Below, piece after piece: positions 6,653 through 7,698 of a stretch of 64,000 nucleotides of DNA. Below the pieces are notes generated by a model, which saw nothing but the letters and a program-made list of their open reading frames with translations, had not been told where the DNA came from and did not search any database. Each line of letters opens with the position of its first letter. Within the stretch, counting starts at the first letter, position 1. Location of the stretch: NCBI RefSeq assembly GCF_058153355.1, contig NZ_CM177019.1; one strand, written 5' to 3'. The translations under genes were made by a program, and so were the position numbers.

Positions 6653-7698
6653 ATGGAGTTTTTCAAAAAGACGGCACTTGCCGCACTGGTTATGGGTTTT
6701 AGTGGTGCAGCATTGGCATTACCCAATATCACCATTTTAGCAACCGGCGGGACCATTGCCGGTGGTGGTGACTCCGCAACCAAATCTAACTACACAGCGG
6801 GTAAAGTTGGCGTAGAAAATCTGGTTAATGCGGTGCCGCAACTGAAGGACATTGCGAACGTTAAAGGCGAGCAGGTAGTGAATATCGGCTCCCAGGACAT
6901 GAACGATAATGTCTGGCTGACACTGGCGAAAAAATTAACACCGACTGCGATAAAACCGACGGCTTCGTCATTACTCACGGTACCGACACGATGGAAGAAA
7001 CCGCTTACTTCCTCGACCTGACGGTGAAATGCGACAAACCGGTGGTGATGGTCGGCGCAATGCGCCCGTCCACGTCCATGAGCGCAGACGGTCCATTCAA
7101 CCTGTATAACGCGGTAGTGACCGCAGCTGATAAAGCCTCCGCTAATCGTGGCGTGCTGGTGGTGATGAACGACACCGTACTGGACGGTCGCGATGTCACC
7201 AAAACCAACACCACCGACGTAGCGACCTTCAAGTCTGTTAACTACGGTCCTCTGGGTTACATTCACAACGGTAAGATTGACTACCAACGTACCCCGGCAC
7301 GTAAGCATACCAGCGACACGCCGTTCGATGTCTCTAAGCTGAATGAACTGCCGAAAGTCGGCATCGTTTATAACTACGCTAACGCATCCGATCTTCCGGC
7401 TAAAGCACTGGTAGATGCGGGCTATGATGGCATCGTCAGCGCTGGTGTGGGTAACGGTAACCTGTATAAATCCGTGTTCGACACTCTGGCGACCGCCGCG
7501 AAAAACGGCACTGCAGTAGTGCGTTCTTCCCGCGTACCGACGGGCGCTACCACTCAGGATGCCGAAGTGGATGATGCGAAATACGGCTTCGTCGCCTCTG
7601 GCACGCTGAACCCGCAAAAAGCGCGCGTTCTGCTGCAACTGGCTCTGACGCAAACCAAAGATCCGCAGCAGATCCAGCAGATCTTCAATCAGTACTAA
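6653..7698 (+). pseudogene. ansB: L-asparaginase II (ansB) disrupted by a -1 frameshift; N-terminal part 6653..7021, C-terminal part readable from about 6936 in the +1 frame
   Basis: Two overlapping ORFs (6653..7021, 6991..7698) together recreate the 348-aa AnsB; frame break at A6 run 6929-6934. Confidence 0.65.

Follow-up and report, generated by a model that had tools for sequence, protein, structure and literature searches.

L-asparaginase II of Escherichia coli (AnsB, EC 3.5.1.1; PDB 3ECA and 6UOD; PF00710 and PF17763) is a high-affinity periplasmic asparaginase that is induced anaerobically. Its catalytic residues, T12, Y25, T89, D90 and K162, include the T89/D90 pair of the HGTDT motif. 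In the active tetramer, T89, D90, K162 and the C-terminal domain are all required. Genes of enterobacteria may also be broken by slippage in a homopolymer, and pseudogenes of this type are marked as 'frameshifted' by NCBI PGAP.

Frameshifting at two consecutive AAA codons has been described in E. coli, where an in-frame C-AAA-AAA gives 25–60% −1 frameshifting under T7 overexpression, so that 1-nt deletions are rescued, and where no extra A was found in the mRNA (PMC1851650). For slips of a single tRNA on A-AAA, rates of 0.3–1% are given (PMC1851650), and unprogrammed slippage on A_AAA_AAG is reported to exceed 1% (PMC10861913). Slippage during transcription is visibly selected against in many bacterial genomes at runs of about nine A/T (PMC1088944).

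We analysed an ansB gene that is interrupted at a run of six A in a 64-kb stretch of DNA, referred to here as the window. Literature searches on frameshifted or pseudogenised ansB, in E. coli as in Shigella, yielded no relevant report. The results indicate, with a probability of about 0.88, that the six-A form is a loss-of-function allele that is genuine and has been passed on vertically in a rarely sampled E. coli lineage.

The break in ansB

The whole of ansB lies on the plus strand at 6653..7698 and measures 1046 nt, compared with 1047 nt for the intact gene; it shares 99.7% identity with ansB as annotated in complete E. coli genomes, where the gene is 1047 nt long throughout. The 1-nt deletion is sited in a homopolymer at 6929..6934 (plus strand), where direct reading of the sequence (window 6920..6950, ACACTGGCGAAAAAATTAACACCGACTGCGA) gives exactly six A, so that the codons across the break are CTG GCG AAA AAA TTA ACA CCG. 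In the intact gene there are seven A, read as AAA AAA ATT for Lys-Lys-Ile, which are codons Lys94-Lys95-Ile96 of the precursor. Seven A are found at this site in every intact relative examined (eight clean relatives), and the window thus differs from intact orthologues by a one-nucleotide indel within a mononucleotide run. The count of six A in place of seven in this Lys-Lys-Ile context, first put forward in a sequence-only reading, is therefore correct.

From the ORF list and its translation, the 5′ ORF (6653..7021, plus strand, 122 aa) consists, in order, of the signal peptide (residues 1–22), residues 1–73 of mature AnsB, 27 out-of-frame residues and the stop codon at 7019–7021. It matches AnsB up to ...WLTLAKK, in agreement with the same reading, which had the N-terminal ORF leave the frame after this point; in mature numbering (precursor minus 22, from the alignment to 6UOD_A), the frame is lost past K73. 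The remaining coding sequence, at 6935..7698 on the plus strand by frame translation, is one base off the start-codon register, and tblastn places residues 93–348 of intact AnsB at window positions 6928–7695. Within it lies the 3′ ORF (6991..7698, plus strand, 235 aa), the first residue of which is mature Met92. The frames of the two ORFs are one base apart (6653 mod 3 = 2 and 6991 mod 3 = 1), and addition of one A in silico yields an uninterrupted AnsB of 348 aa, bearing out the original claim that a one-base frameshift at the A tract splits the gene into these two ORFs. Residues 23–348 of the repaired protein are 100% identical to L-asparaginase 2 in PDB 6UOD chain A (326/326 residues).

Homology to the AnsB family extends over both the N-terminal (PF00710) and the C-terminal (PF17763) domain, as judged from the Pfam assignments of identical products and from comparison of the repaired protein with 6UOD_A; PF00710 is on record for a product identical to the 122-aa ORF. 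No single ORF of the window combines the signal peptide, both domains and T12, Y25, T89, D90 and K162, and the T89/D90 pair and K162 are encoded only in the downstream frame.

The signals of the gene are intact. The Shine-Dalgarno sequence GGAGG is read directly at 6642..6646 (plus strand), and a terminator scan identifies an intrinsic terminator with a 9-bp GC-rich stem and a T tract at 7706..7731 (plus strand). The upstream region (6478–6652) differs by at most 1 nt from that of all relatives, the 3′ region is 98–100% identical to relatives, and only 2–6 nt separate the repaired ORF from the nearest intact alleles. The deletion is probably young relative to the divergence of the lineage, because the promoter region, ribosome-binding site, terminator and remaining coding sequence are undecayed. 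A polar effect on yggM is not expected, since ansB is monocistronic and has its own terminator. The 235-aa ORF was considered as a separately expressed gene and rejected: no Shine-Dalgarno sequence precedes ATG 6991 (CACGGTACCGACACG, compared with GGAGG before the true start) and the ORF has no signal peptide, and therefore neither its synthesis nor its export is expected.

Consequences for asparaginase II

Because of the homopolymer context, we infer that one A was lost through replication strand slippage on the A7 tract in an ancestor of the lineage. Ribosomes that start at ATG 6653 would then leave the AnsB frame after mature K73 and terminate once 27 unrelated residues have been added. Of AnsB, the truncated product retains the signal peptide and the loop that carries T12 and Y25; it is without T89, D90, K162, most of the N-domain, the entire C-domain and the tetramer interfaces, and hence should not be an asparaginase. 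Asparaginase II activity is predicted to be lost in the lineage, which would be without its high-affinity periplasmic asparaginase and, in the anaerobic gut, is expected to be a poor user of asparagine.

The allele may fall short of a complete null, as a −1 slip on AAA-AAA would restore the exact wild-type protein. Such a leaky frameshift, or 'pseudo-pseudogene', would produce some full-length AnsB either through a −1 ribosomal slip on G-AAA-AAA-U, with tRNA-Lys pairing anew on the A run, or through addition of an A by RNA polymerase, and the lineage would keep a reduced, not zero, level of asparaginase II. We consider rescue to any measurable extent (at least 0.5%) possible but doubtful. If one A is re-read after GCG AAA AAA, the following codons become ATT AAC in the wild-type frame and the product reads A-K-K-I-N; the rest of ansB and its signals are intact, and slippage has precedents on C-AAA-AAA as well as on A-AAA (PMC1851650) and on A_AAA_AAG (PMC10861913). 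However, the 25–60% figures belong to T7 overexpression, and comparison with the slippery heptamer X_XXY_YYZ shows that the site, G_AAA_AAA, allows perfect re-pairing in the A-site only, as re-pairing of the P-site codon would fall on GAA and leave one mismatch, at the first position. Neither a stimulatory downstream structure nor an upstream Shine-Dalgarno-like element was found at the six-A run: the 76 nt downstream of it give −7.9 kcal/mol, less stable than shuffled controls (z = +1.35), and the nearest Shine-Dalgarno-like tetramer lies 35 nt upstream, with no such element within ∼35 nt. For the transcriptional route, the run is shorter than the ∼9 A/T at which selection shows (PMC1088944). 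The two-frame arrangement is also conserved nowhere else, with 0/5,426 complete genomes carrying it and a single 348-aa ORF in the relatives examined. A programmed frameshift of the dnaX or IS3 type was rejected, given that both stimulators and conservation are lacking. Low-level rescue is nevertheless plausible and would be incidental. That rescue reaches a biologically relevant level, or one that selection would keep, is decidedly improbable; if true, this would be a stably turned-down asparaginase at a few percent of normal, and the AAA-AAA effect of pDEST17 would have a natural counterpart on a chromosome.

It is unlikely that the loss of AnsB was adaptive, that is, selected rather than the result of neutral decay. 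A role for selection would fit the near-universal presence of ansB in E. coli (5,425 of 5,426 complete RefSeq genomes), the persistence of the broken allele while two isolates of the lineage gathered other differences, and the responsiveness of ansB expression to gut and diet conditions (PMC10878103). On the other hand, there is one event in one lineage, no convergent real loss was found among the other carriers examined, all of them artefacts, and a sample of two isolates is too small to separate selected from neutral loss statistically.

Lineage-mates and the authenticity of the deletion

Whether the missing A is a mutation or a sequencing error had been left undecided in the sequence-only reading; the evidence from other isolates of the lineage, a comparison which that reading had proposed, supports a genuine mutation and speaks against the error. 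The lineage is sparsely represented. The best of the 5,426 complete RefSeq E. coli genomes is only ∼98.7–99.1% identical to the window, and exact-sequence look-ups showed the MutY, YggP and IS621-family transposase sequences of the window to be almost unique in public records. Lineage-mates were traced via the lineage-specific proteins MutY (two NCBI accessions), YggR and YggP, and the MutY and YggR look-ups led to three further data sets, SRR31441161, GCA_015332025.1 and SRR8656992. A corresponding look-up with YggM returned only relatives that are ∼1.5% divergent and have an intact ansB.

In the Logan contigs of SRR31441161, window positions 1–5681 and 5659–13262 are reproduced at 100% identity, six-A run included. 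This data set may represent the same strain as the window, and possibly the reads with which the window was polished, so that real independence rests on one further isolate. That isolate is GCA_015332025.1 (contig AAXEGZ010000066.1), together with SRR8656992, which also has six A and in which no CDS is called at ansB. It is distinguishable from the window by SNPs at 6481, 8858 and 38456 and by a 12-bp deletion in nupG (652–663), which shows the two data sets to be from different clones. The nupG deletion (minus strand) is in-frame and leaves a NupG of 414 aa in the second isolate, compared with 418 aa in the window.

The accuracy of these assemblies can be judged from their indels. Lineage-mate contigs show 0.00–0.16 indels per kb versus clean references; in those that span ansB, the A run is the sole 1-bp indel and the nupG deletion is the only other one, and 13–14 kb of these assemblies contain no further 1-bp indel. 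All homopolymer runs of six or more bases in the shared regions are of equal length in both isolates (34/34). We infer from this accuracy, and from the breaking of contigs at IS copies, that the lineage-mate assemblies are short-read. The same indel thus recurs, at the level of assemblies, in independent sequencing of the lineage that is free of other homopolymer indels. The closest relatives found with seven A, GCA_025429105.1 and ERR7420778, carry the exact YggR of the window and are ∼1.3% divergent; the deletion therefore arose on a long, sparsely sampled branch.

A homopolymer error of sequencing or assembly, in a strain that truly has seven A and an intact ansB, is highly improbable, even though the change from seven to six A at this site is common in public assemblies. 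The exact 122-aa frameshift product is present on 244 public contigs and a variant of it on 49 more. Of the six-A loci from backgrounds outside the lineage, 20 were examined, taken from the blocks with the longest contigs; at all 20 the neighbouring genes are broken (trmB, yggL, yggN, yggM, mutY and a DctM gene are found in pieces) and the indel rate is 0.7–4.1 per kb versus clean references, almost all indels being of 1 bp and most of them homopolymeric. The long-contig carriers differ from the window by at least 82 mismatches in 5 kb. Loss of one A from this run is a recurrent artefact in error-rich, apparently long-read assemblies, and occurrence counts are consequently no evidence that the frameshift allele is real. 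The 244 contigs were for this reason rejected as proof of a real allele, the carriers examined being all error-rich and of other genetic backgrounds. Shigella was considered as well, since the C-terminal piece of ansB is named in records of Shigella flexneri 2930-71 and of E. coli 1827-70. The window is free of the IS elements usual in Shigella, and every one of its proteins bears the label E. coli.

The window, by contrast, has clean flanks. Relative to the nearest complete E. coli genome, 13.2 kb contain 168 substitutions and a single indel, which is the ansB A run. Among 59 reference genes from the closest complete genome, mapped onto the window by tblastn, ansB alone is split and internal stops are absent from all of them, in agreement with the earlier remark that no other core gene is disrupted. 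For an error to account for the allele, the same base, and no other, would have to be lost in independent accurate assemblies of two isolates: the SRR31441161 assembly matches the window exactly over 13 kb with six A, and in the second isolate the six-A run occurs in an assembly whose 14 kb contain no further indel except the 12-bp deletion in nupG.

Among complete RefSeq E. coli genomes, the six-A allele was found in 0 of 5,426, as determined with a 44-bp probe centred on the run. This probe seeds only on six A, because the longest exact match that a genome with seven A can provide is 25 bases, below the word size of 28; in a local control with the same settings and the low-complexity filter on, it matched 13/13 six-A loci and 0/8 seven-A loci. 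An 86-bp probe was dropped, as it could not separate six A with one SNP from seven A. This distribution leaves next to no room for a phase-variable contingency locus switching at high frequency between six A (OFF) and seven A (ON): although the homopolymer lies in coding sequence and a +1 slip could in principle reverse the change, none of the 5,426 complete genomes has the allele, both isolates have six A despite other mutations between them, the accurate assemblies examined outside the lineage all have seven, and a run of 6–7 A is shorter than the usual tracts of known contingency loci.

The remaining indels between the window and the reference are all intergenic or at an island edge. The small intergenic ones lie at 20572–20693, 31230, 32438 and 56117, and include changes in the length of T runs (T6 in the window versus T8 in the reference near 20612, T6 versus T7 at 31230 and T7 versus T6 at 56117). 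Position 31230 is the sole one of these sites covered by contigs of the second isolate, which agrees with the window there. At ∼37640–37940 the window is without a block of ∼3.3 kb that is present in reference strain R32_14_1F between a nucleoside-kinase-family gene and epd; the block encodes an ECF transporter, with its T and S components and two ATPase genes, and also holds a PPC-domain gene, and the 3′ end of the nucleoside-kinase-family gene is divergent in the window (88.6% amino acid identity). The mutY gene (3319–4368, minus strand) encodes a MutY with three amino acid differences from the nearest reference, and public records contain this exact protein only for the lineage's two isolates. 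A MutY defect would lead to more G:C to T:A transversions, not to frameshifts.

Three copies of an IS621-family element (IS110-type, bridge-RNA type) are present in the 64 kb; the transposase of each copy has 326 aa (NCBIfam NF033542, E = 3e-75). They are located at 13188–14626 (plus strand, between yggR and ruvX), 29873–31159 (minus strand, between tkt and a prohibitin gene) and 41775–43052 (plus strand, between fbaA and mscS), all intergenic, and are 97.7–99.5% identical among themselves; the exact transposase is on record on one other contig only. Contigs of both isolates stop at, or within ∼45 bp of, the IS boundaries, and the insertions are therefore apparently common to both. The second isolate's draft assembly appears to be broken into many pieces, and the element may have expanded in the lineage.

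The locus among known systems

The six-A ansB is a known kind of event in a well-known enzyme and involves no new mechanism. Its general biological weight is small, as one more lineage-specific pseudogene of homopolymer slippage. Of wider practical relevance is that the ansB A run is a systematic trap for long-read assemblies, from which a spurious 122-aa 'asparaginase' has entered protein databases, and that the question was settled here by clean flanking sequence and an independent isolate, not by allele counts.

Compared with the homopolymer deletion artefacts of nanopore or 454 sequencing, the change from seven to six A at the site is identical; the flanks in the window, however, are free of other such indels, and an independent isolate has the same change. 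The unprogrammed attB1 N-AAA-AAA site of Gateway pDEST17 (PMC1851650) and the programmed A-AAA-AAG of dnaX share with this locus the arrangement of two in-frame AAA codons with a following frame that is reached by a −1 shift. Unlike these sites, the window has no downstream stem-loop and no upstream Shine-Dalgarno element, the preceding base is G rather than A or C, ansB is under its native promoter and not T7, the arrangement is not conserved, and the rescued product is hypothetical.

With respect to E. coli AnsB itself, restoration of one A gives a mature protein identical to 6UOD chain A, and the gene holds the same position (yggN-ansB-yggM) with the same ribosome-binding site and terminator; as the frame is broken after mature K73, the protein as encoded would not be a functional member of the family. 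The closest likeness is to the enterobacterial pseudogenes formed by homopolymer slippage, with which ansB of the window shares the 1-nt deletion in a run, the premature stop, inheritance within a lineage and an otherwise undecayed gene. There is no substantive difference from these pseudogenes; ansB is the sole broken gene in the 64 kb and stands outside any dense local gene decay, though the lineage has many IS621-family copies.
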